Source of the DNA: Dehalococcoidia bacterium
Lineage (GTDB): Bacteria; Chloroflexota; Dehalococcoidia; Lucifugimonadales; UBA3495
Assembly: GCA_965222895.1 (NCBI GenBank)
Contig: CBDCVB010000002.1
Span: 1,005,608 to 1,069,607 of the forward strand
DNA length: 64,000 nt
Reading direction: 5' to 3'
Numbering within the stretch: position 1 is the stretch's first letter; every line of letters begins with the position of its first letter. Below are positions 5,834-23,606 of the stretch, piece by piece. The notes under the pieces are model-generated. The model was not told the DNA's origin. It ran no database searches and saw only the letters and a program-made list of their open reading frames with translations. The position numbers and the translations under genes are program-made.

Positions 5834-6727
5834 CTAACCTCCGACGTGGCGGTACTTGATCAGCCGCTCGCCTTCTAGGTTCTGGTTCACGTAGATGTCG
5901 CCGTGGGAGTCGACCCAGACGGCGTGGGCGCCGTTGCCCCACCCGGCGTCCGAGGGGCTGCCCCAGCGGGCCAGGATGTCGCCCTCGATGTCCAGAATGG
6001 TCATGAAACCGTCCAGCTCCGGCACGTACACCGCCTCGTCGTCGTCGATGTAGATGTCGCAGGGTCGAGCCAGGTTCAGCCACTGTTCCAGGTAGCTGCC
6101 CTCGGAGTCGAAGATCTGGATGCGGTTGTTCTCGCGGTCGGCCACGAACACCCGCCCGTCCGTGTGCACCCAGACCCCGTGGGGGACGTGGAATTCGCCG
6201 TGACCGGTCTTCCCCGGCGCGCCCCAGGAGTCCACCAGCTCGCCTTCGGGGGTGAATCGGTGCACCCTGGCGTTGCCGTAGCCGTCGGAGATGTACAGGA
6301 GACCGTCCGGAGAAATGGCGATGTCGCTGGGGCGGTTGAATGGCCCGGCCGCCCTGACGGCCGGGTCGCTGTAGTTCCCCGACCAGCCGGTGTCTGAGGG
6401 CTTGTCCCACTCGCCCATGGTCATCAGCAGGTTGCCCTTGGGGTCGTACTTGAGGACCACGTGGCTGTTCTTGACCGGCAGGTAGAGGTTCTGGTCCTCG
6501 TCAATGAACATGCCGTGGGCGTCGGTGAGAACACCCTCACCCCAGGAGGCGAGATAGTTGCCGTCCCGGTCAAGGACGATCAGCGGGTGTTCGCCGCGGT
6601 TGAAGAGATACACCCGGTCCTCGGAGTCGGTGACGATGGCCGTCTGCCCCAGCTCCCATCCCTCGGGCAGCTTCTCCCAATTCTCGACCTGCTCGTAGGT
6701 GTACTTGCCATTGCCGACGGTGATCAT
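5834..6727 (-). CDS. NHL-repeat six-bladed beta-propeller protein (peptidyl-alpha-hydroxyglycine lyase-like)
   Basis: 297-aa ORF with repeated motifs: RPSDIAISPDGLLYISD, HGVWVHTDGRVFVADRENNRIQIF, AHAVWVDSHGDIYV. Confidence 0.75.
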   Translation of the reverse strand: MITVGNGKYTYEQVENWEKLPEGWELGQTAIVTDSEDRVYLFNRGEHPLIVLDRDGNYLASWGEGVLTDAHGMFIDEDQNLYLPVKNSHVVLKYDPKGNLLMTMGEWDKPSDTGWSGNYSDPAVRAAGPFNRPSDIAISPDGLLYISDGYGNARVHRFTPEGELVDSWGAPGKTGHGEFHVPHGVWVHTDGRVFVADRENNRIQIFDSEGSYLEQWLNLARPCDIYIDDDEAVYVPELDGFMTILDIEGDILARWGSPSDAGWGNGAHAVWVDSHGDIYVNQNLEGERLIKYRHVGG

Positions 6728-8729: not shown

Positions 8730-9005
8730 ATGGCCAAAGTGCTATTGATCATCCCCGACGAGAACCGGGATCGTTTCGTCGACCAGGCTCGCCGGGAAGG
8801 GATGACCCTGAGCGCCTGGTTGCGAGCCGCAGCCCACGGTAGGCTCGGTCAAGGATTTCGCCGAGGCGTGTTCGATTCCCCGGACACACTGGCGGCGTTC
8901 TTCCACCAATGCGATTTGGCGGCCGGCACCGGACCTGAGCCCTACTGGCAGGAGCATCTGGCGGAAATCGACCAAGCCCGCGAAGGCGGGGCCATCGGCC
9001 AGTGA
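8730..9005 (+). CDS. type II antitoxin (VapB/RHH-like)
   Basis: 91-aa ORF immediately upstream of a PIN-domain gene, with a GTGA stop/start overlap. Confidence 0.6.
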   Translation: MAKVLLIIPDENRDRFVDQARREGMTLSAWLRAAAHGRLGQGFRRGVFDSPDTLAAFFHQCDLAAGTGPEPYWQEHLAEIDQAREGGAIGQ

Positions 9006-9400
9006 TCTTCGTCGACAGCAACGTATTCATCTACGCGGTGGGCAATCCGCAGCCGCTGCGGGATCCCGCCCGAAAGTTCTTCGCAGATTGCCAGGCCGAG
9101 GGCGTTCGCCTGATCACCTCAGCGGAGATGCTCCAGGAACTGGTCCACGTCTACTTGAGGGTGGGGCGCTTGGATGTGCTAGATGCCGCCACCACCCTGG
9201 CGACGGATGCCTACGCCGAGATCTGGTCCTTGGAAGCGGCAGACGTCGCCTTGGCGCGACGACTCCATGAGCGGTACCCGCCGCTGACCTCCCGGGACCT
9301 TTGCCACTCGGCGTGCTGCCAGCGTCGGGGCCTCAGGAACCTGAAAACCTCCGACTCCGGACTCAGAGATGTGGTTGCAGAGCCGGATGAGTCCAGGTGA
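9002..9400 (+). CDS. vapC: PIN-domain toxin (VapC family)
   Basis: MIFVDSNVFIYA (acidic D5), LITSAEMLQEL and PPLTSRDLCHSA fit the PIN pattern. GTG start overlaps the antitoxin stop. Confidence 0.75.
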   Translation: MIFVDSNVFIYAVGNPQPLRDPARKFFADCQAEGVRLITSAEMLQELVHVYLRVGRLDVLDAATTLATDAYAEIWSLEAADVALARRLHERYPPLTSRDLCHSACCQRRGLRNLKTSDSGLRDVVAEPDESR

Positions 9401-9524
9401 CCTACTCCGGGCTGATGTCCGTTTTCCCGCACCCAGGTATCTATTGTCGGTCCGCTACCCTCCGATTTTCCGAAGGAAACTATCCGGATAAGTGGTCCGA
9501 CTGACGCATCTTGCCAACTCATCA

Positions 9525-9806
9525 ATGGCCCATTGCCTGTCCCCGGACCTGGAGGTTGGCGTCAAGGATGGCCGCATCCACGCGCTGGCCGGCGTGCGCG
9601 CCGATACCGGCGAGTGTTTGACTCTGAGTGTTACCCGCCTAAATTTGGCCAACGCCCTGACCCGTTTGCACGAGTTGGCTGATGGCGCAGGTTTCATGCT
9701 GGGCCACAACCTGATCGATTTCGACCTGCACCATCTGAGGGCCACCAACCCCGACCTGCGGCTATTGACGTTGCCAGCGGTGGACACCCTCCGGCTGAAC
9801 CCCTTG
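9525..9806 (+). pseudogene. N-terminal DEDD-type 3'-5' exonuclease (RNase H-like) domain of a larger protein, truncated by IS1595
   Basis: GFMLGHNLIDFDLHHL and LPAVDTLRLNPL resemble the exonuclease N-domain of large helicase-nuclease proteins. Homology ends at ~9806, where IS-type sequence begins. Confidence 0.5.
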
Positions 9807-10921
9807 CTTTGGGAATTATATACTTGTGTACACCAAACGCTTGACTGCTACCCTCTGCCGGTGTACACTGATGCTATAAATCAATTGGAAGGTTGAATGA
9901 TGGCTACTACACAATCCGGCCCCGGCAAGTCATATCGCAAGGGCGTTACTATCGTTGAAGCCGCGCAACGCTTTGGCAACGAAGTCGAAGCCGAAGCTTG
10001 GTTTGTCTCCCGTCGCTGGCCCGATGGCATCCGTTGCGCTTACTGCGATGGGGCTTCTATCACACCCCGCAGTAACGGTCGCCAAACCCCTGCCTATCGT
10101 TGCAATCCCTGCAAGCGGGATTTCACGGTAAAGACGGGAACGATTATGCACGATTCCAAACTGCCGCTTTCCAAGTGGGCGATGGCCTTGTACCTGTTTG
10201 CGACTAACCTGAAGGGCGTCAGCAGCATGAAGTTGCATCGGGATTTGGGTATCACCCAAAAGTCGGCCTGGCACCTGGAACATCGTATCAGGGAGACATT
10301 GAATGACGAAGCGCAAATGTTCCTCGGCCCGGTGGAAGCCGATGAGACCTATATCGGCGGCAAGGAAGGCAACAAGCACGAAAGCAAGAAACTGCACCAG
10401 GGGCGCGGGGCAGTCGGCAAGACCGCCGTGGCTGGGGTCAAAGACCGAAACACCAACACCGTTGACGCCGCCGTAGTAGCACGCACCGACGGCCCCACCC
10501 TGCGGACCTTCGTTCACGAGCACACTCAGCCAGATGCTACCGTCTATACCGACGAAGCGGCGGTCTATCGGCGGTTGAACCAGCCCCACGAAGCCGTTCG
10601 CCACAGCGCGGGCGAGTACGTCAACGGTATGGCCCACACCAACGGGATTGAATCCTTCTGGGCGATGCTGAAACGGGGTTACATCGGCATCTATCACTGG
10701 ATGTCGGCCAAGCACCTGCACCGCTATGTCAACGAGTTCAGCGGCCGGCACAACATTCGCCCCCTGGATACGCTGGGGCAGATGGCGGCAATGGTGCGTG
10801 GTATGGACGGGAAGCGGCTGACCTACGCCGCGCTGACCGGCCCTGCCCCCACACTCCAACCGCAGCTGATTCGGGAGTGATGCGAAAGGTCAAACAGAGG
10901 ATTAGCGGTTCAAGGAGTGGG
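9807..10921 (+). mobile_element. IS1595-family insertion sequence (boundaries approximate)
   Basis: Single transposase gene with its own promoter-like TTGACT-17nt-TACACT (9841-9869). The left boundary is inferred from the break in the exonuclease gene; the right end was not resolved. Confidence 0.6.
9897..10880 (+). CDS. IS1595 family transposase
   Basis: 327 aa with an N-terminal Zn-ribbon (CAYCDG...YRCNPCKRDFTVKTGTIMH), VEADETYIGGK, TVYTDEAAVY and NGIESFWAMLKRG. Confidence 0.85.
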   Translation: MMATTQSGPGKSYRKGVTIVEAAQRFGNEVEAEAWFVSRRWPDGIRCAYCDGASITPRSNGRQTPAYRCNPCKRDFTVKTGTIMHDSKLPLSKWAMALYLFATNLKGVSSMKLHRDLGITQKSAWHLEHRIRETLNDEAQMFLGPVEADETYIGGKEGNKHESKKLHQGRGAVGKTAVAGVKDRNTNTVDAAVVARTDGPTLRTFVHEHTQPDATVYTDEAAVYRRLNQPHEAVRHSAGEYVNGMAHTNGIESFWAMLKRGYIGIYHWMSAKHLHRYVNEFSGRHNIRPLDTLGQMAAMVRGMDGKRLTYAALTGPAPTLQPQLIRE

Positions 10922-10929
10922 TGTCGTAA

Positions 10930-12381
10930 GTAACTGTTCAGAGTTGCGGGGAAGTGAGCAGTTGTCGGCAAGCGGCGAGGGGATTCAGTCCTTGGGCGCG
11001 CCAGGTGCCGAAGAGGGAGGCCAGGGTCATCTTGCTGCTGCTGCCCCGTTCCGACCGGGTGCCGCCGCTGATCTTGCGACTGACGACCAGGTGGCGCAGG
11101 CTGCGTTCGGCGGCGTTGTTGTCCGGTGGCGCCTCCGGTTCGGCCACGAAGACGAACAGTTCTTTGATATGGCGCTCAATGCGTCGGCACAGCTTGGCCT
11201 GAGCCGCTGACGAGTCGTCCAAGCAAGGCTGGCAGAGGGCCAGCAACTGCCGTTCCAGGGCCAGTTGGGCGGCGCGTCGCCGCTTGGTCTGAGGATGGGC
11301 GCTGGCTTTGGCCCGGTCGTAAATCTCGTGGACGGCGTCGGCCCACTGCGCCAGCTTTTGGTCCTTCGGATAGAGGACCTTCAGGTCGTGAATGTCCCGC
11401 AACAGGTGGGCCCAGCAGCGTTGCTTGGGGCCGTCATAATGGTGGTAGGCGGCGTAGAAGTCGCTGACCAGCACACCGGCGAAGGTGTCGCCCAGAGCTT
11501 CATCCACCACTTCCTTGTTGCGACCCCGCCGCAGGAAGTAGCGCGCCGATGGTGTGCTGAAAGTCCACACGTAGCCGTTGTTGCCATCCTCACGCCAGCC
11601 GGTCTCGTCGGCGTGGACCACTGGGCTGGCGCGGACTTGGGCCAGAATCCGGTCCACGGCGGCCTGGGCCCTTCGCGCGGTGCGATGCACCGCAGCCATG
11701 ATGGCTCCCATGCTGAGGCGCAGCCCATGGACGGTGTGCAGATACCATTGGATGGCGCCGACGGGCAGGCGGGCCTCCTCTCGCAGCGTGGCAATCAGAC
11801 TGACCAGGTTGATACCCAGGCGCTGCTGGCCCATCACCACGCCGTCCAGTTGCGCCGGGGGCACGCAGCGGCGGCGGCAAGCCGGACAATCCCTGGCGAT
11901 GTAGACGTGCTCGGTAACTTCCGCCGGAACCTGGGGCAACTCGATGACCTCCCGGGTGCGCTGGGTCCAGCCACCGGACAACTGGGTTCCGCAGTCGGGG
12001 CAGTGGTCCACCACATGCTCCACCCGACGGGTGGGCGTCATGCGACGGCGGGCAAAGCCGTGGGGCCGCCGCTGGCGTGGCGCTTTGGGCTGGGCCGGTT
12101 TCCGGCTGGCTTCGGGTTTGAGGCCGGGCATCCCCCGGGCGCCACTGGGTTTGGCCCGCCCTTCCAGCTGAGCAATCCGCTGCTCCAGGCGCTCGATGAC
12201 GGCCTGCTGTCGGGCTATGATGGCCTCTTGTCGGGCTATGATGGCGATGAGCACATCGCGGTCAGCGGTGGACAGGTCGATTTCCGAATCCATACCCGTT
12301 ATATGACATAACCACAACCCCACGCGCAAGCCATCCCCAAACCGCTTTGAACCAATTCCCCCACCAAGTCTGAACAGTTAC
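10930..12381 (-). mobile_element. IS66-family insertion sequence, complete copy 2 (1452 bp) with 8-bp target duplication TGTCGTAA
   Basis: Terminal inverted repeats are GTAACTGTTCAGA (10930) and TCTGAACAGTTAC (ends 12381). Direct repeats TGTCGTAA lie at 10922-10929 and 12382-12389. Confidence 0.9.
10938..12293 (-). CDS. IS66 family transposase (TnpC-like)
   Basis: 463-aa ORF track entry. The likely start is MDSEIDL (cat 12291-12293). Contains the leucine-zipper-like N-terminus, CPDCG...CPACRRR Zn motif and DETGWRE...DFYAAY. Confidence 0.9.
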   Translation of the reverse strand: MDSEIDLSTADRDVLIAIIARQEAIIARQQAVIERLEQRIAQLEGRAKPSGARGMPGLKPEASRKPAQPKAPRQRRPHGFARRRMTPTRRVEHVVDHCPDCGTQLSGGWTQRTREVIELPQVPAEVTEHVYIARDCPACRRRCVPPAQLDGVVMGQQRLGINLVSLIATLREEARLPVGAIQWYLHTVHGLRLSMGAIMAAVHRTARRAQAAVDRILAQVRASPVVHADETGWREDGNNGYVWTFSTPSARYFLRRGRNKEVVDEALGDTFAGVLVSDFYAAYHHYDGPKQRCWAHLLRDIHDLKVLYPKDQKLAQWADAVHEIYDRAKASAHPQTKRRRAAQLALERQLLALCQPCLDDSSAAQAKLCRRIERHIKELFVFVAEPEAPPDNNAAERSLRHLVVSRKISGGTRSERGSSSKMTLASLFGTWRAQGLNPLAACRQLLTSPQL

Positions 12382-12397
12382 TGTCGTAAAACCCCGG

Positions 12398-12426
12398 TAG
12401 ACAATTTACGACACCCCCGCTATAAT
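12398..12426 (+). promoter_or_regulatory. sigma70-like promoter TAGACA-17nt-TATAAT upstream of the methyltransferase gene
   Basis: TAGACA at 12398-12403 and TATAAT at 12421-12426. The ATG lies 30 nt downstream, at 12456. Confidence 0.5.
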
Positions 12427-13420
12427 GCGGCGAGCGCAATCTGGCGAACCGTCTGATGACCAAGTTGAACGTTGCCAACCGCACCTTGTCTGTCATGGAC
12501 AACCTGCGGTTTATAAGGTCGCTCAACAACGAGTGCATTGACCTGATTGCCATTGACCCGCCCTTTGCCACCAACGAGACTTTCACCAGGAAGCCAAAGC
12601 CACCGGTCACCGAGGCGGAACTGGCGGAAGAAAAGGAACTGGCGGCGGCTCACGGCGCGGAGCACAACGAAGGGATTGGCGAAACCAGGGTACGAGACGT
12701 GTGGAGCTGGGACGCCGATGTGCATCCTGACTGGAAGGCTCGCATCGCCGATGATTATCCCAAGGTTCACGCCGTGATTGAAGCAGTGGAAGCCTGCGCC
12801 AGCGAAAACGATGCTGCTTACATTGCATTTATGGCCGCCAGGTTGCTGGAATGCCGGCGGGTGCTGAAGCCGGACGGCAGTATCTATGTCCATTGTGATG
12901 ACCGGGCCAATAGTTACCTGCGGATGCTGATGGACGCGATCTTTGGCGCAGCCAACTTGCGCAATCAGATTGTGTGGCGGCGCGCCATAGCTCACAATGA
13001 TGCCACTCGGTACGGAAATATCACCGACACGCTTCTGTACTATGCTATGTCAAAGAATTGCACGTGGAACGGGAGTGAGATTGCCGACCCCAAGACAGTT
13101 GAACAATTACTTACTGCTTACCCACAAGAAGACGCGCGTGGGCCGGTCAGGTTCTCCGACCTGACCGGCCCAGGTCCCACTAACGGGGAATCGGGGCAAC
13201 CTTGGCAAGGTTATGACGTAGCGGCCAGAGGAAGACATTGGGCTCCACCCAAAGCATCCGACTATGCCAATTGGATAGAACGCAACATCATTCCTTGCTA
13301 CACCAAACTGACCGGCGTTCATGCCCGGCTTGACGCACTGGACAATGCAGGATTGATCACGCATCCAAAGAAGGGAGTATGGCCTGGATTGAAACGGTAT
13401 GCCACGGCAGATAGAGGCAG

Positions 13421-13534
13421 GTAACAGTTCAGACTTGCAGGGACCTGCCGACTATTCGGCTAGCTGTGGAGGGGCGACCAAACACGGAATTTCCACTGCA
13501 AACCGCTTCCGTCCCATCAAACGTGAACAGTTAC
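13421..13534. mobile_element. 114-bp MITE with IS66-type terminal inverted repeats and an 8-bp target duplication
   Basis: Ends are GTAACAGTTCAGACTTG... and ...GTGAACAGTTAC. Flanking direct repeats are AGAGGCAG (13413-13420) and AGAGGCAA (13535-13542). Confidence 0.8.
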
Positions 13535-13593
13535 AGAGGCAACCCTCCCCAAAACTTGGTACTGCATCCTACGGGTTTTACCAACTACAGCAC

Positions 13594-13603
13594 GGGGGGG
13601 GGG
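13594..13603 (+). repeat. homopolymeric G10 tract inside the methyltransferase reading frame
   Basis: Counted directly. With the MITE removed, G11 or G8 would be in frame and G10 is not. Confidence 0.9.
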
Positions 13604-14399
13604 AGTTCGTCGGCTACGCCACGCAGAAGCCGTTAGCGCTGTACGAGCGCATCATCAAGGCCAGCAGCAACCCCGGCGACGTGGTATTGGACATCTTCGC
13701 CGGCTGCGCGACTACCGCAGTTGCCGCCGAGCGGCTGGGGCGGCAATGGATTGCCTGCGATATGGCCTACCGGAGCTGGACGATGCTCAAACGTCGTTTC
13801 TACCTCAATGGCATTGCGCTGGAAGGCACTACCGACGCCACCAAAGAGGCGCTGGCATCGGTCAAAAAGGACCAGGTGTTTCAGGAACCCCAGCAGTGGA
13901 CGACCAGTTGCGTCATTGGCCCCGGCAACTTGCCGGAGCGGGATGATGTTGACCCGGAGCCACATCATCAGTTACGGCAATCACGCGGCAAGAACCGAAC
14001 CAACCAAAATGCCAATTGGTCGGGTCGCATCTCCAAAGAGGACGCCAAAGAACTGTTGGTCAAGCGATTTGGCCCGGTCTGCTGGGGCTGTGGGTACGAA
14101 CCGCGCCGGCCCAACAGCACCTGGGATCTAACGCTGTTGGAAGTAGACCACATCCGGGCGCGTAATGCGGCGGAGGGAATGTCTGGCAATGACGAACTTT
14201 ATAACCTGGCCTTGTTGCATCGCACCTGCAACATCGTCAAAGGCAACCGTCTGACGTTGCGCGAACTGCGTCAACACAATGCAGAGCAGATGATGCTGTA
14301 CGTGCAAAAGGTGAGCGACTTGGTTGACATCTTCCAGGCCCAGGAATTTGCGATGGAAGAAATTATGCGACGGGGTGTACAAGGGTCACTGGTCGCCTG

Positions 14400-14585
14400 A
14401 TGCCAGAGGAGAGCAAAATGCCGCAGAAGAAGGAACGGGGCCGGCCCAGCCGTCCAATGCCGGAAGTGAAAGTTTCATCCATTACGCCCGAAGATTTGGC
14501 GGATATAATCGTGCGGGCCAAACCCAAGAAAACATGGCGATACTTAACCGAAGCGCGGGAAGCGCGTGATAAGGGCAAGCCGTAA
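14400..14585 (+). CDS. small basic hypothetical protein (AT-hook-like KKERGRPSRP)
   Basis: 61-aa ORF whose start overlaps the MTase-HNH stop (TGATG). Confidence 0.3.
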   Translation: MPEESKMPQKKERGRPSRPMPEVKVSSITPEDLADIIVRAKPKKTWRYLTEAREARDKGKP

Positions 14586-14624: not shown

Positions 14625-15518
14625 TTACGAGGCCGGGTAATTGCCCAGCCACCACCGCGCGATGTCGATGCGACGGGGCAGCCAGACCTCGGGCTTGCCC
14701 TTCACATATTCCAAGAACCGGCGTAACGCCGCCGCCCGGGCCGGCTTGCCGATGATGCGGCAATGGAGTCCTACGGACATCATCTTGGGGTGGGTTGCTC
14801 CCTCCCGGTAAAGAGTGTCGAAGCAGTTGCGAGCCGCCTCGAAGAAGTCGTTGGGCGTTGACAACTGGCCGCGCCAAAATCCGTAGTCGTTGACCTCCAA
14901 CGAGTAGGGCACCACCAGCCACGGGTTGCCGTGGACCTCAGTGTAATAGGGCAGGTCGTCGTTGTAAGCGTTGCAGTCGTAGACGAAACCGCCCTCCTCT
15001 ACCACCAGCTCCCGGGTGTTCACGCTGGGTCCATAACGCGTGTACCAACCCAGAGGTCGCTGCCCGGTAGTGCGGGTGATGGAGGCCACGGCCTGATTGA
15101 TGGCCTCCCGTTCAGCGTCCCGATCCATCCTGTAGTATTCTTCCCATCGGTTGCCGTGGCCCATTACCTCGTGTTCCCGGCGAACCAACTCCGGCCCCAC
15201 TTCCGGGTTGCGTTCCAAGGCCAGGGCGCAGGCGAAGAAGGTCGAGTTGACTCCATACTCATCCAACAGGTCCAGGATGCGCCAGACACCGACCCGGCTG
15301 CCATACTCGAAGAAGGACTCATTGGCCAAGTCCCTCTCACCTCTGGCTACCGGCGACGGCGACTCGCCAACCGTCTCGCCGTGAGGATCCCCATCCAGGA
15401 TGGAATTTTCGGACCCCTCCTCGTAGTTGACGACAAACGATACGGCAATCCGGGCGCCGTTGGGCCATTCAACCGCCGGCGGGTTGGGGCCGTAGCCGAT
15501 CAGGTCGCGTCCTGCCAT
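14625..15518 (-). CDS. puuE: polysaccharide-deacetylase-family protein, PuuE-type allantoinase-like
   Basis: 297 aa with IAVSFVVNYEEGSE, GSRVGVWRILDLLDEYGV and MMSVGLHCRIIGKPAR, typical of PuuE. Confidence 0.75.
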   Translation of the reverse strand: MAGRDLIGYGPNPPAVEWPNGARIAVSFVVNYEEGSENSILDGDPHGETVGESPSPVARGERDLANESFFEYGSRVGVWRILDLLDEYGVNSTFFACALALERNPEVGPELVRREHEVMGHGNRWEEYYRMDRDAEREAINQAVASITRTTGQRPLGWYTRYGPSVNTRELVVEEGGFVYDCNAYNDDLPYYTEVHGNPWLVVPYSLEVNDYGFWRGQLSTPNDFFEAARNCFDTLYREGATHPKMMSVGLHCRIIGKPARAAALRRFLEYVKGKPEVWLPRRIDIARWWLGNYPAS

Positions 15519-15618
15519 GAGATTGCTCCTCCTTCTCCCCGGTACGGCAGCCCGGCCTACTCAGAGAACCACGAACGGACTGGAATCTGCGGACGCTTAT
15601 GTAAACGGAAAGGGCCGG

Positions 15619-16524
15619 TTAGCCGCCCCGCCAAGGGTTGATCCCTGTGGTCTTCATCCGCATTCGGTAAACTGAGCTACGGGCGGTGAAGTACATGGTG
15701 CGGTAGTCAGAGTCACCCCAGGCGCAGTTGGCCGGAATCTCGGGCAACCGTATGATACCCACCAGGGAACCGTCAGGCTCAAAGACCCAAACTCCGCCCG
15801 CGCCGGTGCAGTATACCCGGCCGTCGGTATCAACCTTCATCCCATCGGGGACGCCGTCCTCCGCCGAGTGCATATTGGCGAACAGCCGACTATTGCTCAC
15901 CGAGCCATCTGGGGCCACGTCGTAGGCCCGCATGTACTGGTGGGTACAAACCTCCCCATGTTCTTTCTCCGCGGCGCATTCGTCGCCGCGGCGGGTGTTG
16001 TCGGCGTACAGGATAGTTTCGTCGGGAGAGAAGGCCAGGCCGTTGGGCGATTCCAGGTCGGTGACCACGGCGGATACCGTGCCGTCGGGGGCGATGCGGT
16101 GGATGCCGTGGAAGTCGATTTCCCGCTCTTCCGGGGGCAGGCGAAGGCCGGGGCTGGTGAAGTAGATGCTTCCGTCGGAGCGGCACACCACATCGTTGGG
16201 ACGGTGCAACCGCTTGCCCTCCCAACGGTCGGCGATTACGGTGATGGAGCCGTCGGGTTCCCAACGGGTCATCTGCCGGTCGTCCCCGTCGCACATTATG
16301 ATTCTGCCCTGGAGGTCGAAGGTCAGGCCGTTGGCGCCCCCACTGTTTCCCCGTATGACCTCTGGTTCGCCGCCGGGCGCCAGGCGATAGATGACGTTGA
16401 TGCGGTTGTTCACGAACAAAAGATAGCCGTCCGGGTGCCACAGTGGCCCCTCGGTAAACTCGAACCCGGTGGCCAGCCGTTCCGCCTCGGAGGATTCTAC
16501 GATTTGATCCAAATTATCGGGCAT
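15619..16524 (-). CDS. SMP-30/gluconolactonase/LRE family protein
   Basis: 301 aa with FTEGPLWHPDGYLLF, GANGLTFDLQGRIIMC, RPNDVVCRSDGSIYFT and PNGLAFSPDE. Confidence 0.85.
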   Translation of the reverse strand: MPDNLDQIVESSEAERLATGFEFTEGPLWHPDGYLLFVNNRINVIYRLAPGGEPEVIRGNSGGANGLTFDLQGRIIMCDGDDRQMTRWEPDGSITVIADRWEGKRLHRPNDVVCRSDGSIYFTSPGLRLPPEEREIDFHGIHRIAPDGTVSAVVTDLESPNGLAFSPDETILYADNTRRGDECAAEKEHGEVCTHQYMRAYDVAPDGSVSNSRLFANMHSAEDGVPDGMKVDTDGRVYCTGAGGVWVFEPDGSLVGIIRLPEIPANCAWGDSDYRTMYFTARSSVYRMRMKTTGINPWRGG

Positions 16525-16804
16525 AGTGGCCTCCTGATGCTGGTTAGTCGGAATCGTGGTGCTTCACCGATGGACTGATGGACGTCTCCCTCAGCCTTTC
16601 GGCGATTTGCCGGATGGCGTCGTACAAACGCCGGTGCAATTGCAACCTATGCAGTTCGTTGGCTCGTATCTGCCGCTGACTATATCATGCTGAACAAGCC
16701 GGAAGCCGTATAAACAACGGTCCGGCGAGACTGATGCTCACGAAGGACGACTCGGATATTTAGATCTCGGATGTCCAGGATGGCGGTTGCGGAATGGCGA
16801 GGTT

Positions 16805-17857
16805 CTATTGCCGGAACTTGGGCATCACTTCCTTGGCGAAAAGCTCCATTGAACGCAATACCCTGGAGTGCTCCATGCTGCCGAAGGACATGCTGGCGCC
16901 AAAGTACCCGATGCCGTGTTCGTCGCGTAACTTGGTGATTCGCTGCACACATTGCTCCGGCGTGCCAAAGTAAGCAGTAGTCTCCAGTTCCGATTCATAA
17001 GTGGCCGGTTCGACAGTGCGGGTTCGACGCCAGTGGTCCAGGTCCACATTGATTTCATCGCCGTGGGTCAAAGTGCGCCGATAACCACCCAGATCCCGTA
17101 CCCAGGTCAGAGACTGGCGCGGGTATTCCCGAGCTGTCAGTTCGTCTTCGTCCAGGTACACAAACCGGAAGTAGGGCATTTCCTCCAGGGGCAGATCCTT
17201 TCCGGCAGCAGCGCAACGTTCGGCATAAAGGGAAAACAGGCCCAGATTATCGGCCTCCGGGGTAGAAAAGCTGGTCAGGATGGGCAGGTCTCGCGATACG
17301 GCAACGTCCACACTGGCGGGGGTACGGGATACGGCCAGATACACCGGGGGATGGGGCCGTTGTACGGGTTTGGGAGCTATCGTAAGGTCTCTCACCTGAT
17401 AAAACTCGCCCTGAAAAGTGAAATCGTCCTCGGTCCACAACCCCAGGATAATGTCCAGGGCCTCCTGGGTTCGCGCGTCCCGGGTGTCAAAGTCGACATT
17501 GAAGTTGCCATATTCGTAATCTGCCGAACCGCGTCCAACCCCGAAGTCCAGCCGGCCGTGGCTTAGAACGTCCAGCATGGCGCTCTCTTCAGCCAGGAAA
17601 ATGGGGTTGTGGAAAGGCAGGACGCTGACGCCGGCCCCGATCCGAATCTTCTTCGTACGTGCCGCGATGTTGCAGAGCAGCGGCATCAGGGAAGGGCAGA
17701 TGCCGTACCGGCTGGAGTGATGCTCCGCAATCCAGATCGAATCAAAGCCCAACTCCTCGGCGTATTCAACCTGTTCCAGCATCTCACCAAAGATCCGGCT
17801 TTGAGCGCTGGTCTCCGGCTCCGTCCAGGAACCCAGCAAAAACAGGGCAAACTTCAT
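16805..17857 (-). CDS. LLM-class flavin-dependent oxidoreductase
   Basis: 350 aa with GFDSIWIAEHHSS and LDVLSHGRLDFGVGRGS. Confidence 0.85.
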   Translation of the reverse strand: MKFALFLLGSWTEPETSAQSRIFGEMLEQVEYAEELGFDSIWIAEHHSSRYGICPSLMPLLCNIAARTKKIRIGAGVSVLPFHNPIFLAEESAMLDVLSHGRLDFGVGRGSADYEYGNFNVDFDTRDARTQEALDIILGLWTEDDFTFQGEFYQVRDLTIAPKPVQRPHPPVYLAVSRTPASVDVAVSRDLPILTSFSTPEADNLGLFSLYAERCAAAGKDLPLEEMPYFRFVYLDEDELTAREYPRQSLTWVRDLGGYRRTLTHGDEINVDLDHWRRTRTVEPATYESELETTAYFGTPEQCVQRITKLRDEHGIGYFGASMSFGSMEHSRVLRSMELFAKEVMPKFRQ

Positions 17858-18070
17858 AATGGATGTGGGCCTCCTTCAAGCTAACCTGGAGCGATTCTAC
17901 AGGTTTTGGAGAAAGTTTGCTCGCTGGTGCCTATCTTGCCGGCCAATTTGGGGCGGCGATATGGCGGGACGGTCAGCTTGGTCGGGGCAGGGAGCTACTC
18001 CGGGCCTGCATATGCAAAAGCCCGATCAAAGGCGTAAGCCATAACAGCCTGGCTGGAAGGGTGAGACCGT

Positions 18071-19141
18071 TCACCCCATAATCCGCCTAAAAAATGCCAA
18101 GGCGTTGCCGCCGCCGATTTTCTTGATGTCCTCATCAGAATACCCACGGGCTATCAGGCCACGGACGATGTTCTTGCCGTCGGCAGGGGACTCCAGACCG
18201 TTCAGATAGGGCGCCGGCGCGGGATTGGTGCGGCCCATCACCACCCGCCCCACTCCCACCGTGTCGCCAATGCTGGCATCTGTGCCGATGGCGACATGGT
18301 CCACCCCCACCAGTTTGACCATATAAGCGTACTGGTCCAGCACGCTTTCGATACTTTGCTCCGGGTCGTTGCTGAGCCGGTTGGGTACGGCGGTTATCCC
18401 GATGATGCCGCCTTTCTGAGCGCAGGCCAGCAACTCCTCGTCCTTTCTCAACCTTCGGGCTTGAAAACTGTCGCTGGCGAGGGTGTAGGAACCGTCGTGG
18501 CTGAAGGCAACCGGAGTTTTTGATGCGTCGATCGCGTCCATCGCAGTTCGGAAGGAGGCGTGGGACACGTCGACAACCATCCCCAGTTCATTCATACGTT
18601 GAACAACCTCCAGCCCGAACTCACTAAGGCCCCCGTCGTTGCGCTCGAAGATGCCGTCCCCAATGTAGGCCTTGCGACTATAGGTCAGGCCAGCCAGCCG
18701 TATTCCCGTGTTATAGAGGACGTCCACCAGGTTTAGCCCATTGCCAATGGCCAGGTGCTCCACCGTGGGCAAGAACCCCACCTTACCCTGCTGCTTGGCC
18801 GACTCTATATCGGCGGCATTACTGACCTGGAGCACGTCGTCATGTCGCGAAATGTCCGAGATCATCATGCTGATCTCGTCCAGCAGATCGGAGAATCGGA
18901 TGAAGGACATCTCGTTGGTGTGCAGCATTCCGCGAAAGACGTTGGCTGTTCCCACGGCGGTAAAACCGCCTTCTCTTACCGCATCGTACCCCCAAACGTA
19001 GCTGTCGCTGCGCAGGTACTCCCAATATTGGCTGAAGTCTTCGGGCAGGACCATCGGATGCTGGTGAAGGTCGATCATTATCGACTCCTCCATCAAGCGT
19101 TGAAACCTGACTTCCTGCTGCCCGTCCAGCCGCACGGTCAT
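18071..19141 (-). CDS. membrane dipeptidase (peptidase family M19)
   Basis: IDLHQH, GLTYSRKAYIGDG, MVVDVSHAS and HVAIGTDA are M19 motifs. An alternative upstream start lies at 19192. Confidence 0.8.
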   Translation of the reverse strand: MTVRLDGQQEVRFQRLMEESIMIDLHQHPMVLPEDFSQYWEYLRSDSYVWGYDAVREGGFTAVGTANVFRGMLHTNEMSFIRFSDLLDEISMMISDISRHDDVLQVSNAADIESAKQQGKVGFLPTVEHLAIGNGLNLVDVLYNTGIRLAGLTYSRKAYIGDGIFERNDGGLSEFGLEVVQRMNELGMVVDVSHASFRTAMDAIDASKTPVAFSHDGSYTLASDSFQARRLRKDEELLACAQKGGIIGITAVPNRLSNDPEQSIESVLDQYAYMVKLVGVDHVAIGTDASIGDTVGVGRVVMGRTNPAPAPYLNGLESPADGKNIVRGLIARGYSDEDIKKIGGGNALAFFRRIMG

Positions 19142-19372
19142 GGATGGGACGCGGCCCACTTGACTGACGAGGTGAAATCGGCCAGGCGTCATAATGCAAC
19201 TCCGTTCCAGGCGACCAGTTGGATCACTCTCGAAATGTAATTGGAATCGGGCCCTCTAGCAGCAGTTGCAGACGGAACGCAATGCAACCGCGCCAGTCCC
19301 CGCAGGGTTCTACCTGCAGGACGAGGATCCGTGTTCCATGTATGATCCGTCCGGACCGAACGCATCTAGTAC

Positions 19373-20527
19373 TCAATCAATCTTGGAATTGAAGGGATAT
19401 AGGCGATGCAGTTTGGCTCGGGCGTCCTGGGTGTTGAACCGCCAGTTGATGGTGGCCCTCGCCGCATTGCGCTCGGCCGCATAGGCGTTGATGGCTTGCT
19501 GTAGGGCAGTCTCGTCGGGATTACGCCCTTGGAGACAAGCCCGGGTCAACACGCTGAACTCGATCTCCGCCATCCCTTCGGCAAGCTCAGGACAGGATTG
19601 AGCCAACTGGCGTGCTTGGGCGTGTGGTGAAACTCGAGGCGCTTCACGATGCGCCGAGCTTCGGCGGCGTCGCAGGTCTCATAGAGGGAAGCCATGCGGT
19701 GCGTGTTCAAATTGTCCAGAACCACCCGCACCACCGGGGCATCGGGGTAAGCCTCATCCACCAGCCAGCGCATCCGGTGGGCACAGTCCTCCATAGTGCG
19801 GCGCTCGGTAATCGCCACGTGTCGCCAGCCCGCCAGGGGCTCGCAGGTCAGGAAGATGTTGCGCGTGCCGGCGCGGCGATATTCGTAATCCTGACGCCGC
19901 GGTTGTCCCGGTTGCACTGGGATGGGCGCCCTGGTGTCGGCCAGCAACTGGGTGGAAGTCTCATCGAAGCAGACCACCGGCCGGTCCGGGTCGTAGGGCT
20001 CAGCATACAAGTCCAGCACGTCCTCCATCGCCGCCACGAATTCGCCGCCTACTTTCGGGATGCACCACTGCTGCTTCCGCCACGGCTGGCGGACGTTTTT
20101 TGAGCCTCAACCGCACCGTCTCATGGGACAGGGACTCCACCAACCCCAACTCCACCACTCGGTCGGCCAGCAGCTGCAGGGTCCAGTGGTCGTGGCCAGC
20201 GGGCGCTGGGCTGCACGCCAGGGCAATCAGGTGGGCCTCGCCCTTGTCGTCCAGCTTGCGATACCGGTTGGCCTGGACCCGATCCTGCAACACGCCATCC
20301 AAACCTTCCTCAGCGTACCGCCTTTTGGCCCGGTACACCGTACCCTTGGACACGTCCAAAGCGGCCGCCACCTGAGGTGCGTTCCATCCCTCATCAACTT
20401 TAAGTAGAATGCGCGCCCGGGCGACGATACGAGCCAAACTTTTGCCGCTACGTAGCAGTCGGCTCAGTTGCTCCCGCTCCTCCGGCGTCAACCGTACTGC
20501 GTATTGCTCCAGGGCCATGTTTGCCAC
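19373..20527 (-). pseudogene. IS630 family transposase, three frames (A6 run plus 23-nt insertion)
   Basis: ORFs 20000-20527 (HTH), 19546-20037 (DDE core, VLDNLNTH) and 19373-19606 (MAEIEFSVL...). Confidence 0.85.
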
Positions 20528-20581: not shown

Positions 20582-21690
20582 ACTGATGTTACGCAGCCTT
20601 GAGGAGTTGGAGTTCGTCAAAGGCCTGGCGAACCGCCTTGAGATATATCCGGGTTCGCAAGGCAAAATGATTCAGCTGGTGGGTCATACTGAGCCATTCC
20701 AAGCGACAGGCCGAGTAGATTGCCATGAAACAGTGGTTGCTTTGAGTTCGGACGGTCTTCCCCGGCGACTTGGCCAGCGCGGCGTTGCCCTTGAGCGTCT
20801 TGTGAAACGTCTCCACTTTCCACCTTTGTTGGTAGATCGTTCTAATGCTCTCGCCTTCACTGTCCAATTCGCTGCAAGCCAGATAGAGAGTCCCAGTGCT
20901 GCCGTCTTTGTTCTTAAAGATCTGGCGCAGCAGCAGGACCGGAAAGTCCAGTCCCCGCAGCCAGCCGCGCACTGGTTGACCTTCCGGCAGGTCCAGCGTG
21001 TCGATCCGGTGAAAGCTGCCCTGAAGTTTCGCTGCATGGCTCAATGCTGCTGTCCGGTTGGATTTGAGCGCGATAATGAACTCCTTGTTCAAGTCCTTGT
21101 GGCTGAAACTCAGGTTTTCTTTGGACGAAAACCAACTGTCGGCCAGCACATAGCGATACTCCAGCCGGTTCTGCTGACACACCTTGAGCATCCGGCGCAT
21201 CAGTTCGTTCTTGGAGACCGCGCTCCTGCGCTTGAGCCGACCGGTGTTCGCATCCTTGAACATATTGGGCTTGCGGATGATTTCGTAGGCCACTGGCAGC
21301 GTTATACTCTGCGCGTGGTAAACGCAGTTGAGGATGTTAATGCCCTTGATGGTTCGGTTCTTGCTGTGATCGAAGTGCCAGGTGACGATCTCGTTCTCGT
21401 CGGTATAGGGCTTTTCCTCAATGGTATCGTCAAATATCAGCGCGCCATTGGGCGGTTCGATCTTTCGCACCATGAGCTTGACCAGCTGCCAGAGGGTCCT
21501 GGAGTCGTAGCCCTCCTGGGACAGCAAGCGGGTTATCCGGTCATGGCTGACTTCCCCTTCCAGCATATTGGACAGGCCGGTGGCTGTCGCCGCCCCAAAG
21601 GAGCTCAGCAGGTAATCGCTATAGAGTTCGGTCAGTTCTTTATTCATGCTTCAAAGATAGCAGTTTCTGCAGCCGGTGCGTAAGGTCAGT
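20582..21690 (-). mobile_element. IS4/IS701-like insertion sequence (1109 bp) with 5-bp target duplication CACTA
   Basis: Inverted repeats are ACTGATGTTACGCAGCC and the reverse complement ACTGACCTTACGCACC. CACTA lies at 20577-20581 and 21691-21695. The uninterrupted paralogous site in IS630 copy B carries a single CACTA. Confidence 0.85.
20589..21647 (-). CDS. DDE transposase, IS4/IS701-like
   Basis: 352 aa with FDDTIEEK, YVLADSWFSS and the Y-2-R-3-E-6-K motif YQQRWKVETFHKTLK. Confidence 0.85.
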   Translation of the reverse strand: MNKELTELYSDYLLSSFGAATATGLSNMLEGEVSHDRITRLLSQEGYDSRTLWQLVKLMVRKIEPPNGALIFDDTIEEKPYTDENEIVTWHFDHSKNRTIKGINILNCVYHAQSITLPVAYEIIRKPNMFKDANTGRLKRRSAVSKNELMRRMLKVCQQNRLEYRYVLADSWFSSKENLSFSHKDLNKEFIIALKSNRTAALSHAAKLQGSFHRIDTLDLPEGQPVRGWLRGLDFPVLLLRQIFKNKDGSTGTLYLACSELDSEGESIRTIYQQRWKVETFHKTLKGNAALAKSPGKTVRTQSNHCFMAIYSACRLEWLSMTHQLNHFALRTRIYLKAVRQAFDELQLLKAA

Positions 21691-21890: not shown

Positions 21891-21892
21891 TA

Positions 21893-22338
21893 GTACTCGG
21901 TCAACATTGGAAAGGCAGATGAAGGATGAAACGGGCGATGGTTGCCACGCTGGCGGTCAAACAGCGGTGCGGTAGGTGCGGCATCCATGGTTGCGGAGAA
22001 ATATGCGGTACGGTTGTCGTCGGAAGATCGGGCCCAACTGGAACGGTTGATCCGTAGCGGTCAGCGCTCAGATCGGATCATCAATCGGGCGCGCATCCTG
22101 CTCAAGACTGACGACGGATGGAGCGCCTCACGGGTGGCCGCAGCCTTGGACACGTCGCCGCGCACGGTGTTCCGCACCAAACGCCGGTATTGGGAGGAGG
22201 GATTGGACGGCGTGCTGCACGACCATCCCCAAGCCAACCGGTATCGCAAGCTGGATGATCGGGGTGAAGCCATCTGATTGCCTTCGCGTGCAGCGACGCC
22301 CCCGAGGGCCATGAACACTGGACCCTGCGGTTGCTGGC
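21893..22338 (+). mobile_element. third, diverged IS630-family element (copy C), 5' fragment only
   Basis: Starts GTACTCGGTCAAC after a TA. It encodes MVAEKYAVRLSSEDRAQLERLIRSG...ANRYRKLDDRGEA, then frameshifts. It ends at 22338, where copy B is inserted. Confidence 0.75.
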
Positions 22339-22340
22339 TA

Positions 22341-23586
22341 GTACTGGTTCAGATCAGTATTGTAAGTTGTATTAGTGAAAGGCTTCCAAATGCTACGCTG
22401 ACCGCAAGATCGAATGGTGGGGAGGTGTGGCAAACATGGCCCTGGAACAATACGCGGTACAGTTGACGCCGGAGGAACGCGAGCGACTGAGCCGACTGAT
22501 ACGTAGCGGCAAAAGTTCGGCACGCATCGTTGCCCGAGCGCGCATCCTGCTCAAAGTAGTTGAGGGATGGACCGCACCACAGGTGGCGGCCGCTTTGGAC
22601 GTGTCCAAGGGTACGGTGTACCGCGCCAAACGACGGTACGCTGAGGAGGGATTGGCGGGAGTCATCCAGGATCGGGTCCAGGCCAACCGATACCGGAAGC
22701 TGGACGATCGGGGCGAGGCCCACCTGATTGCCCTGGCGTGTAGCCCAGCGCCCGCTGGCCACGACCACTGGACCTTGCAGCTGCTGGCCGACCGAGTGGT
22801 GGAGTTGGGGTTGGTGGAGTCCCTGTCCCATGAGACGGTGTGGTTGAGGCTCAAAAAAACGTCCCCCAGCCGTGGCGGAAGCAGCAGTGGTGCATCCCCA
22901 AGGCAGGGGGTGAATTCGTGGCGGCGATGGAGGACGTGCTGGACTTGTATGCTGAGCCCTACGACCCGGACCGGCCGGTGGTCTGCTTTGATGAGACTTC
23001 CACCCAGTTGCTGGCCGACACCAGGGCGCCCATCCCAGTGCAACCGGAACCACCGCGGCGTCAGGATTACGAATATCGCCGCGCCGGTACGGGCAACATC
23101 TTCCTGACCTGCGAACCCCTGGCGGGCTGGCGACACGTGGCGATTACCGAGCGCCGCACCATGGAAGACTTCGCCCACCAGATGCGCTGGCTGGTGGATG
23201 AGGCTTACCCCGATGCCCCAGTAGTGCGGGTGGTTCTGGACAATTTGAACACGCACCGCATGGCTTCCCTCTATGAGACCTTCCCCGCCGCCGAAGCCCG
23301 GCGCATCGTGAAGCGGCTGGAGTTTCACCACACACCCAAGCACGCCAGTTGGCTCAATCCTGTCCTGAGCTTGCCGAAGGGATGGCGGAGATCGAGTTCA
23401 GCGTGTTGACCCGGGCCTGTCTCCAGGGGCGTAATCCCGACGAGACTGCCCTACAGCTAGCCATCAACGCCTATGAGGCCGAGCGCAATGCGGCGGGGGC
23501 CACCATCAACTGGCGGTTCAACACCCAGGACGCCCGAGCCAAATTGCATCGCCTATATCCCTTCAATTCCAAGATTGATTGAGTAC
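22341..23586 (+). mobile_element. IS630-family element copy B (1246 bp), TA-flanked
   Basis: Starts GTACTGGTTCAGATCAG and ends ...GATTGAGTAC. TA lies at 22339-22340 and 23587-23588. Confidence 0.9.
22427..23582 (+). pseudogene. IS630 family transposase with an A7 -1 frameshift site and a 23-nt insertion before the catalytic-E motif
   Basis: ORFs 22427-23107, 22840-23409 and 23349-23582. LRLKK then -1 gives NVPQPWRKQQWCIP at CTCAAAAAAAC (22853-22859). SWLN and MAEIEFSVL are separated by 23 nt (23359-23381). Confidence 0.85.
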
Positions 23587-23606
23587 TAGTAGTGACACAT
23601 TACCAG

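Follow-up and report, generated by a model that had tools for sequence, protein, structure and literature searches.

Within a 64,000-nucleotide stretch of contig CBDCVB010000002.1 from a Dehalococcoidia bacterium (GenBank assembly GCA_965222895.1), referred to here as the window, two open reading frames (ORFs) on the + strand, 12456-13424 (ORF1, 322 aa) and 13399-14400 (ORF2, 333 aa), are read in frames offset by one and share 26 nt. Our analysis led us to the view, which we hold with a probability of roughly 0.7, that this locus is a recently inactivated, solitary gene that would have encoded in a single chain a Type III Mod-like beta-class DNA methyltransferase with a C-terminal HNH domain, and that it was broken by a 114-bp miniature inverted-repeat transposable element (MITE) and by a run of ten G residues (G10). 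Comparison of the predicted proteins with intact homologues confirmed that ORF1 and ORF2 are two pieces of a single gene. A sequence-only reading of the window had proposed that they were halves of one methyltransferase gene, and the two ORFs and all of the sequence features it described were recovered in place.

The gene was reconstructed by deleting positions 13413-13534, i.e. the 114-bp insert together with one 8-bp copy of the target site (122 bp in total), and by adding one G to the G10 run. More than 110 intact proteins of 595-625 aa, from metagenome-assembled genomes (MAGs) of Dehalococcoidia, aligned with the resulting 607-aa protein at 60-74% identity and covered 98-100% of it; the search covered 5.8 billion proteins, and these homologues were counted as clusters at 90% identity. 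In the homologues the methyltransferase and HNH regions are encoded by one ORF of ~600 aa and not by two genes. Hence the intact fusion that the sequence-only reading had suggested looking for in related genomes exists, and two separate genes, the native arrangement that would have spoken against it, were not what the homologues displayed. Across both lesions the reconstruction reads ...ADRGNPPQNLVLHPTGFTNYSTGGGEFVGYATQKP and a homologue ...ADTGNPPQNLVLDPIGFTNYSTGGGEYSGYSTQKP, so that the repair proposed earlier (removal of 122 bp and a G11 run) indeed yields homologue sequence over both sites. At the junctions the reconstruction reads ...RYATADRGNPPQNLVLHPTGFTNYSTGGGEFVGYATQKP and the closest homologues ...RYAEADTGNPPQNLVLDPIGFTNYSTGGGEYSGYSTQKP; this alignment places the insertion site at codon 321, identifies the right flanking copy, with its Asn codon AAC, as ancestral, and gives G11 (T-G-G-G-E) as the in-frame tract.

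After the G run, ORF2 reads EFVGYATQKP ... FAGCATT ... CWGCGY ... DHIRAR ... HRTCNIVKGN, with CWGCGY encoded from 14080 and the DH of DHIRAR at 14146-14151, whereas its first 68 codons are an artefact of the lesions and bear no likeness to anything in the family. Eighteen homologues have 195 invariant positions in common, and the reconstruction departs from them at four of these (I/L, V/I, D/E and S/G), each time conservatively; intact homologues, tested alike, differ at 0-16 positions. Since the reconstructed protein is nearly undecayed, the inactivation was recent.

The insert, its probable parent and the G10 run

The insert is best described, judging from its ends and flanks, as a MITE of the insertion sequence (IS) that lies next to the gene. 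Its ends agree with those of the neighbouring IS at 12/13 positions (19/22 when extended) and allow it to fold back on itself, its flanking duplication has the length of that of the IS, and it encodes no transposase. When a 13-nt end motif was searched for with up to two mismatches, the window gave four sites where chance predicts 0.63, and the three that do not belong to the insert are ends of IS66-family IS copies. The IS itself carries one transposase of 463 aa (10938-12329), which matched the profiles PF03050 (E 4.7e-44) and NF033517 (277 bits; cut-off 180), and is bordered on both sides by a perfect 8-bp duplication, TGTCGTAA (10922-10929 and 12382-12389). With a single-ORF DDE transposase, an 8-bp direct repeat and GTAA... 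ends, it falls in the ISBst12 group of the IS66 family. A member of this group, ISDge4, has ends GTAACTGCTCAGCA, an 8-bp repeat and a 449-aa transposase, and transposes by copy-and-paste (PMC12898284); the neighbouring IS resembles ISDge4 and ISBst12 in its single transposase of ~450-460 aa, its GTAACTG.TCAG ends and its 8-bp direct repeat (PMC12898284). The insert is like ISBst12-derived MITEs in its ends and repeat length and unlike them in that its interior is only loosely similar to the IS ends and that one copy was seen. The sequence-only reading was therefore sound in calling the insert a MITE, and its origin can now be narrowed to the neighbouring element. Because this IS family transposes by copying, the insertion is probably irreversible. 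A second copy of the IS, 93% identical, occupies positions 1-1206, truncated where the window begins; an IstB-like fragment (IS21 helper ATPase) at 1353-1823 adjoins this truncated copy as a further sign of IS density.

The course of events that we favour begins with entry of the MITE at codon 321, which left the 8-bp duplication usual for its family; presumably the intact IS 1 kb upstream supplied the transposase that mobilised the element in trans. The GTAAC end of the MITE sets an in-frame TAA, with the consequence that ORF1 stops short of the nuclease and of the S-adenosylmethionine (AdoMet)-binding motifs X and I-III. Sixty bases downstream, a -1 slip from G11 to G10 would have followed, after which the frame would stop even if the MITE were absent. 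We infer this order of events and a lack of expression. Both lesions fall within a loop, predicted to be flexible, that connects the target-recognition region with motif X in an AlphaFold (AF2) model of the reconstruction. The promoter noted earlier is present, and the IS, which lies ~1 kb upstream of the MITE, sits 9 bp upstream of its -35 box; as the promoter begins 9 bp downstream of the IS target-site copy, it belongs to the native sequence and was not brought in by the IS.

The G10 run is the sole homopolymer of at least 8 bases in the 64 kb, the next-longest G or C runs being of 6 bases. If the 122 bp are removed and G10 is kept, the frame reads ...NYSTGGGSSSATPRRSR and ends 10 codons past the run at a TAG (13634-13636), while either G11 or G8 restores EFVGYATQKP. 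At the corresponding site homologues read STGGGE, using mixed codons such as ACCGGTGGCGGGGAA, and close homologues read ...GNPPQNLVLDPIGFTNYSTGGGEYSGYSTQKP, from which G11 follows as the in-frame length. A homopolymer at this site was found in none of 36 homologous genomic loci, which makes the tract specific to this lineage and not a device of the family; runs of at least 7 bases within the gene were seen in two of these loci, both of 7 bases and near the 3' end. In the alignment the tract sits where the sequences vary, and in the model it belongs to a loop of low confidence (residues 327-341), in which changes in length by three bases would probably be tolerated. The features of the locus are collected in Table 1.

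Table 1. Coordinates of the features at the methyltransferase-HNH locus (window positions)
Feature	Coordinates	Strand	Remarks
ISBst12-group IS66-family IS, 1452 bp, probable autonomous parent of the MITE	10930..12381	-	ends GTAACTGTTCAGA
Sigma-70-like promoter TAGACA-17-TATAAT	12398..12426	+	11/12 consensus positions
N-terminal part of the gene, residues 1-321	12456..13420	+	DPPF motif IV (12555-12566), motifs of the catalytic half, variable target-recognition region
Left target-site duplication AGAGGCAG	13413..13420		last base unlike that of the right copy
114-bp MITE with inverted ends GTAACAGTTCA...TGAACAGTTAC, no coding capacity	13421..13534		bases 2-4 give the TAA (13422-13424) that ends ORF1
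Right target-site duplication AGAGGCAA	13535..13542		keeps the ancestral Asn codon
Gene segment coding for (G)NPPQNLVLHPTGFTNYS(T), stranded between the lesions	13535..13593	+	in frame with neither present ORF
G10 run	13594..13603	+	ancestral G11: ACG GGG GGG GGG GAG = TGGGE
C-terminal part of the gene, residues 343-607 and stop	13603..14400	+	motif X YATQKP, motif I FAGCATT (13696-13716), linker, HNH (~14080-14250)
5' extension of ORF2, 68 codons	13399..13602	+	out-of-frame gene sequence and MITE

Predicted domains and the homologue family

On the reconstructed protein, the methyltransferase profile PF01555 (N6_N4_Mtase) matched residues 28-396, thus crossing both lesions, with an E value of 2.7e-38 and 132.6 bits (cut-off 26.7), and the HNH profile PF01844 matched residues 515-558 (E 3.5e-5, 24.3 bits; gathering cut-off 21.4). 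Nuclease and methyltransferase domains are thereby both present on one polypeptide, as in single-chain (Type IIC-like) enzymes. The DPPF of motif IV (residues 34-37) precedes the YATQKP of motif X (347-352) and the FAGCATT of motif I (374-380), the order of the beta permutation. In an alignment of 114 sequences, D34, P35, P36, F374, A375, G376 and C377 of the methyltransferase and C502, C505, D524-H525, N543, H548, C551 and N552 of the HNH region are invariant, and the reconstruction has lost none of the catalytic or metal-binding residues of either domain. The AF2 model was built from the same 114 sequences (mean predicted local distance difference test, pLDDT, 79.8; predicted template modelling score, pTM, 0.69) and replaced an earlier one from 19 sequences that was too poor (pLDDT 46). 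Its best structural matches in the PDB were the Mod subunit of EcoP15I (4zcf) and 6k0w, followed by MboIIA, RsrI and CcrM; sequence searches of the PDB agreed with this result, listing methyltransferases only, none of which matched beyond the methyltransferase domain. The sequence-only reading had left the target base as N6A/N4C. Its beta-class assignment stands, and the choice can be sharpened: DPPF instead of SPPY/F at motif IV points to adenine-N6, and this motif, taken together with structural neighbours that are Type III Mod-like or m6A methyltransferases, favours a predicted N6-adenine over an N4-cytosine specificity.

Towards the C-terminus, the model displays a strand-strand-helix arrangement at residues 521-525, 544-548 and 549-555, within the C-terminal 90 residues, and the ligands follow the pattern CxxC ... 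DH ... N ... HxxCN with Asn as the final metal ligand. The domain is predicted on this basis to be an HNN-type HNH (beta-beta-alpha-metal) domain with a CCHC zinc site and is a putative nuclease. The catalytic motifs and the HNH region have the highest mean column identity (0.83-0.88), and the middle of the protein, residues 201-340, has the lowest (0.67); in three loci (L026, L028 and L030) this middle part is shorter or difficult to align. Such a distribution is what divergent target-recognition domains would give. The ancestral protein was most likely a single-chain modification-plus-nuclease enzyme, and would have served either as a restriction enzyme or as a selfish methylase-nuclease.

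Of the 36 homologous loci, 31 align along their length in one frame, three align as two one-frame blocks around a divergent middle, and two are broken. Some Dehalococcoidia genomes hold two or three paralogues. Damaged members of the family comprise L023 (4660-6000), with an IS3-family insertion at residue 255; L024 (~6190-6200), with a 1-nt deletion near residue 70; and L038 (2806-4573), a pair of fragments from which the middle region has been lost. A search with the C-terminal module gave 142 matches at E <=0.001 among 1.84 billion representatives of 50%-identity clusters; all eight of the longer matches tested have the same methyltransferase-plus-HNH architecture, at 33-46% identity, and no fusion was found on phage or plasmid records. 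In the protein database, 76 short proteins match the module, being C-terminal fragments and some stand-alone HNH proteins. One protein encoded at L039 4001-4699 (P0164, 232 aa) consists of the HNH module of the family alone, occurs on 16 contigs and has no methyltransferase fragment adjoining it; it may be a nuclease that acts by itself or a remnant that has been conserved.

The layout had been called uncommon, which holds overall but not within the Dehalococcoidia, where the intact clusters are numerous: the fusion is common in that class, rare elsewhere and uncharacterised, and the family appears to be confined to MAGs of Dehalococcoidia and other Chloroflexota. None of ten members looked up carried a functional name, one other match was labelled merely 'hypothetical protein', and literature searches on methyltransferase-HNH fusions returned no paper on this architecture. 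All-against-all clustering of the flanking ORFs at the 36 loci revealed no conserved partner gene; the flanking families are all housekeeping ones, among them luciferase-like oxidoreductases, NHL and SGL propellers and ABC transporters. A Type III arrangement is likewise lacking, in that no Res helicase-nuclease partner lies beside the window gene or at any of the 36 homologous loci.

Alternative readings of the locus

Some observations weigh against a gene with two lesions, one of them a MITE. The 8-bp duplication that flanks the insert agrees at only 7/8 positions, and no further copy of the insert was found, it being single in the 64-kb window and present in none of 42 fetched loci, so that the multiple copies typical of a MITE are missing from the sequence examined. 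In addition, the length G10 may come from a wrong consensus or be just one of the states of a variable tract, and the gene would then have one fixed lesion and not two. The frameshift that had been described at G10 is present in the given sequence; it may reflect a true slip, a homopolymer miscall or the OFF state of a variable tract. No close strain with an empty site or another G length was found: exact-protein look-ups of ORF1, PuuE and SGL were without match, a genome scan for the gene returned nothing nearer than 74% identity, and the one match in a scan of metagenome DNA for the tract with its flank was a eukaryote-like sequence hit by chance (L037).

The strongest competitor, which we nevertheless consider unlikely, holds that the MITE is the only real lesion and that G10 is a sequencing or assembly error in an organism that carries G11. 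Being the only run longer than 7 bases in the window, the tract is a typical site of failure for a long-read consensus; contigs of related MAGs appear to come from low-coverage long-read assemblies (records ctg..._6x_l and _9x_l), one related MAG has several housekeeping genes that are split, puuE and DAO each being in two pieces, and the remainder of the present gene is undecayed. On the other hand, the PuuE, SGL, luciferase-like and M19 neighbours in the window are intact, so the assembly is not generally error-prone, and a slip in a run of 11 Gs would be expected soon after inactivation by the MITE. We regard it as improbable that the run is a phase-variation switch, as in Type III mod genes, that alternated between ON (G11) and OFF (G10) before the MITE arrived or independently of it. 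G or C runs of at least 9 bases are hypermutable and drive the phasevarions of Helicobacter, Campylobacter and Neisseria, and mod genes are classic carriers of phase-variable repeats. As in phasevarions, a long homopolymer sets the frame in an ORF for a Type III Mod-like methyltransferase; the tract is moreover an extreme outlier for this genome and lies in a variable, low-confidence loop that would probably tolerate a change in length. Unlike in phasevarions, however, the tract is maintained in no relative among the 36 loci, and a switch would be without effect while the MITE is present. Intact housekeeping ORFs of related genomes contain long C or G runs as well. In related Dehalococcoidia genomes, stretches of 10-13 Cs were noted at L004:111, L006:3226, L030:5193 and L035:8586, and the C10 run of L030 lies inside an intact ORF of 564 aa; long runs in these genomes therefore need not be switches.

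Far less credible than either is a working split enzyme made from two translationally coupled ORFs, with ORF1 supplying the catalytic half and target recognition and ORF2 the AdoMet-binding half and the HNH domain. Split methyltransferases exist, and ORF2 does remain open for 68 codons upstream through the MITE, with an ATG start that overlaps the end of ORF1 by the 26 nt mentioned above. Yet no homologue is so organised by design, the other split copies (L023, L024 and L038) being plainly damaged; ORF2 begins with 68 residues that come from the MITE and from gene sequence read out of frame; and the family-conserved segment NPPQNLVLHPTGFTNYS is missing from both products. A single gene inactivated by both the MITE and the G10 run accordingly remains our preferred reading, and the locus itself is an ordinary pseudogene, produced by the routine decay of an accessory DNA-modification gene through a mobile element and a homopolymer.

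Genomic setting and relation to known systems

Relatives with PuuE proteins 89-94% identical to that of the window share the block 14631-19207 (M19 peptidase, luciferase-like oxidoreductase, SGL and PuuE) at 84-91% nucleotide identity. The synteny ends exactly at 14631, where the relatives have a DAO-type oxidoreductase and no copy of the gene. On the far side of the breakpoint, the window carries a 61-aa ORF, the broken fusion gene, the IS66-family element, an IS1595-type transposase, a truncated helicase gene and a VapBC-like pair; the fusion gene thus counts as accessory, part of a variable patch that is rich in IS elements and absent from the closest relatives.

Several features of this patch and its surroundings were noted in passing. 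The ATG of the 61-aa ORF (14400-14585) overlaps the TGA of the fusion gene (TGATG), and its product contains an RGRP (AT-hook-like) motif; it had no Pfam or NCBIfam match and was not found beside any homologue. The IS1595-type transposase gene (9897-10880) abuts a 134-aa ORF (9492-9896) that matches just the N-terminus of an 841-aa RecQ-like helicase of a relative, at 62% identity, and the helicase gene appears, from this match, to have been truncated by the IS1595-type IS. This DEAD-box helicase remnant was considered as what is left of a Res gene and rejected, the full-length relative in L040 looking RecQ-like, with an exonuclease-like N-terminus and no adjoining methyltransferase. At 8730-9400, overlapping ORFs of 91 and 132 aa resemble, by eye, an antitoxin and a PIN-type toxin, and a ribbon-helix-helix (RHH)-PIN pair lies beside the L040 helicase. 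Further along the window, inverted copies of a ~1.1-kb element (19366-20372 and 21891-23589) flank an ORF at 20586-21683 in the manner of a composite transposon; both copies match one DDE_3/NYN region of a relative (L041) at 77-79% identity.

Among characterised enzymes, the Type III Mod proteins (EcoP15I Mod, 4zcf; the Mod-like methyltransferase of H. pylori, 6k0w) are the best structural matches, match by sequence as well and share with the window protein the beta order IV ... X-I and a target-recognition region inserted mid-way; they differ from it in that the window gene and the 36 loci have no Res neighbour and carry a fused C-terminal HNH instead. The stand-alone beta-class N6-adenine methyltransferases M.MboIIA (1g60), M.RsrI (1eg2) and CcrM (6pbd) have the same PF01555 fold, with DPPY/F at motif IV and TQKP ... 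FxGxG at motifs X and I, but at ~230-370 aa they lack a nuclease, whereas the window protein has a long insertion behind motif IV and ~190 additional C-terminal residues that include the HNH domain. Enzymes of Types IIC, IIG and IIL, such as MmeI, BpuSI and AcuI/Eco57I, combine an N-terminal PD-(D/E)XK nuclease with a gamma-class methyltransferase. They are like the window family in having nuclease and methyltransferase in one chain, no partner gene and recognition regions that diverge among family members, and unlike it in that the window family places a beta-class methyltransferase first and a predicted HNH nuclease last.

We propose, tentatively, that the members of the intact family may represent an enzyme type not described so far, either a single-chain restriction-modification enzyme or a selfish methylase-nuclease, of marine and sponge-associated Dehalococcoidia, in which a Type III Mod-like beta-class adenine methyltransferase would have exchanged its Res partner for a C-terminal HNN-type HNH. 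Its genes would be solitary, present as several paralogues per genome with divergent recognition regions and often killed by IS insertions or frameshifts, and a G11 run may have made the present copy phase-variable. The wider use of the locus is as a pointer to this uncharacterised methyltransferase-HNH family, which is the more interesting lead. If the family does cut and methylate DNA as one chain, it would represent an HNH-based, Mod-derived architecture that is new to the restriction-enzyme catalogue, and these symbionts, which are uncultured, might owe some of their barriers to gene flow to it.

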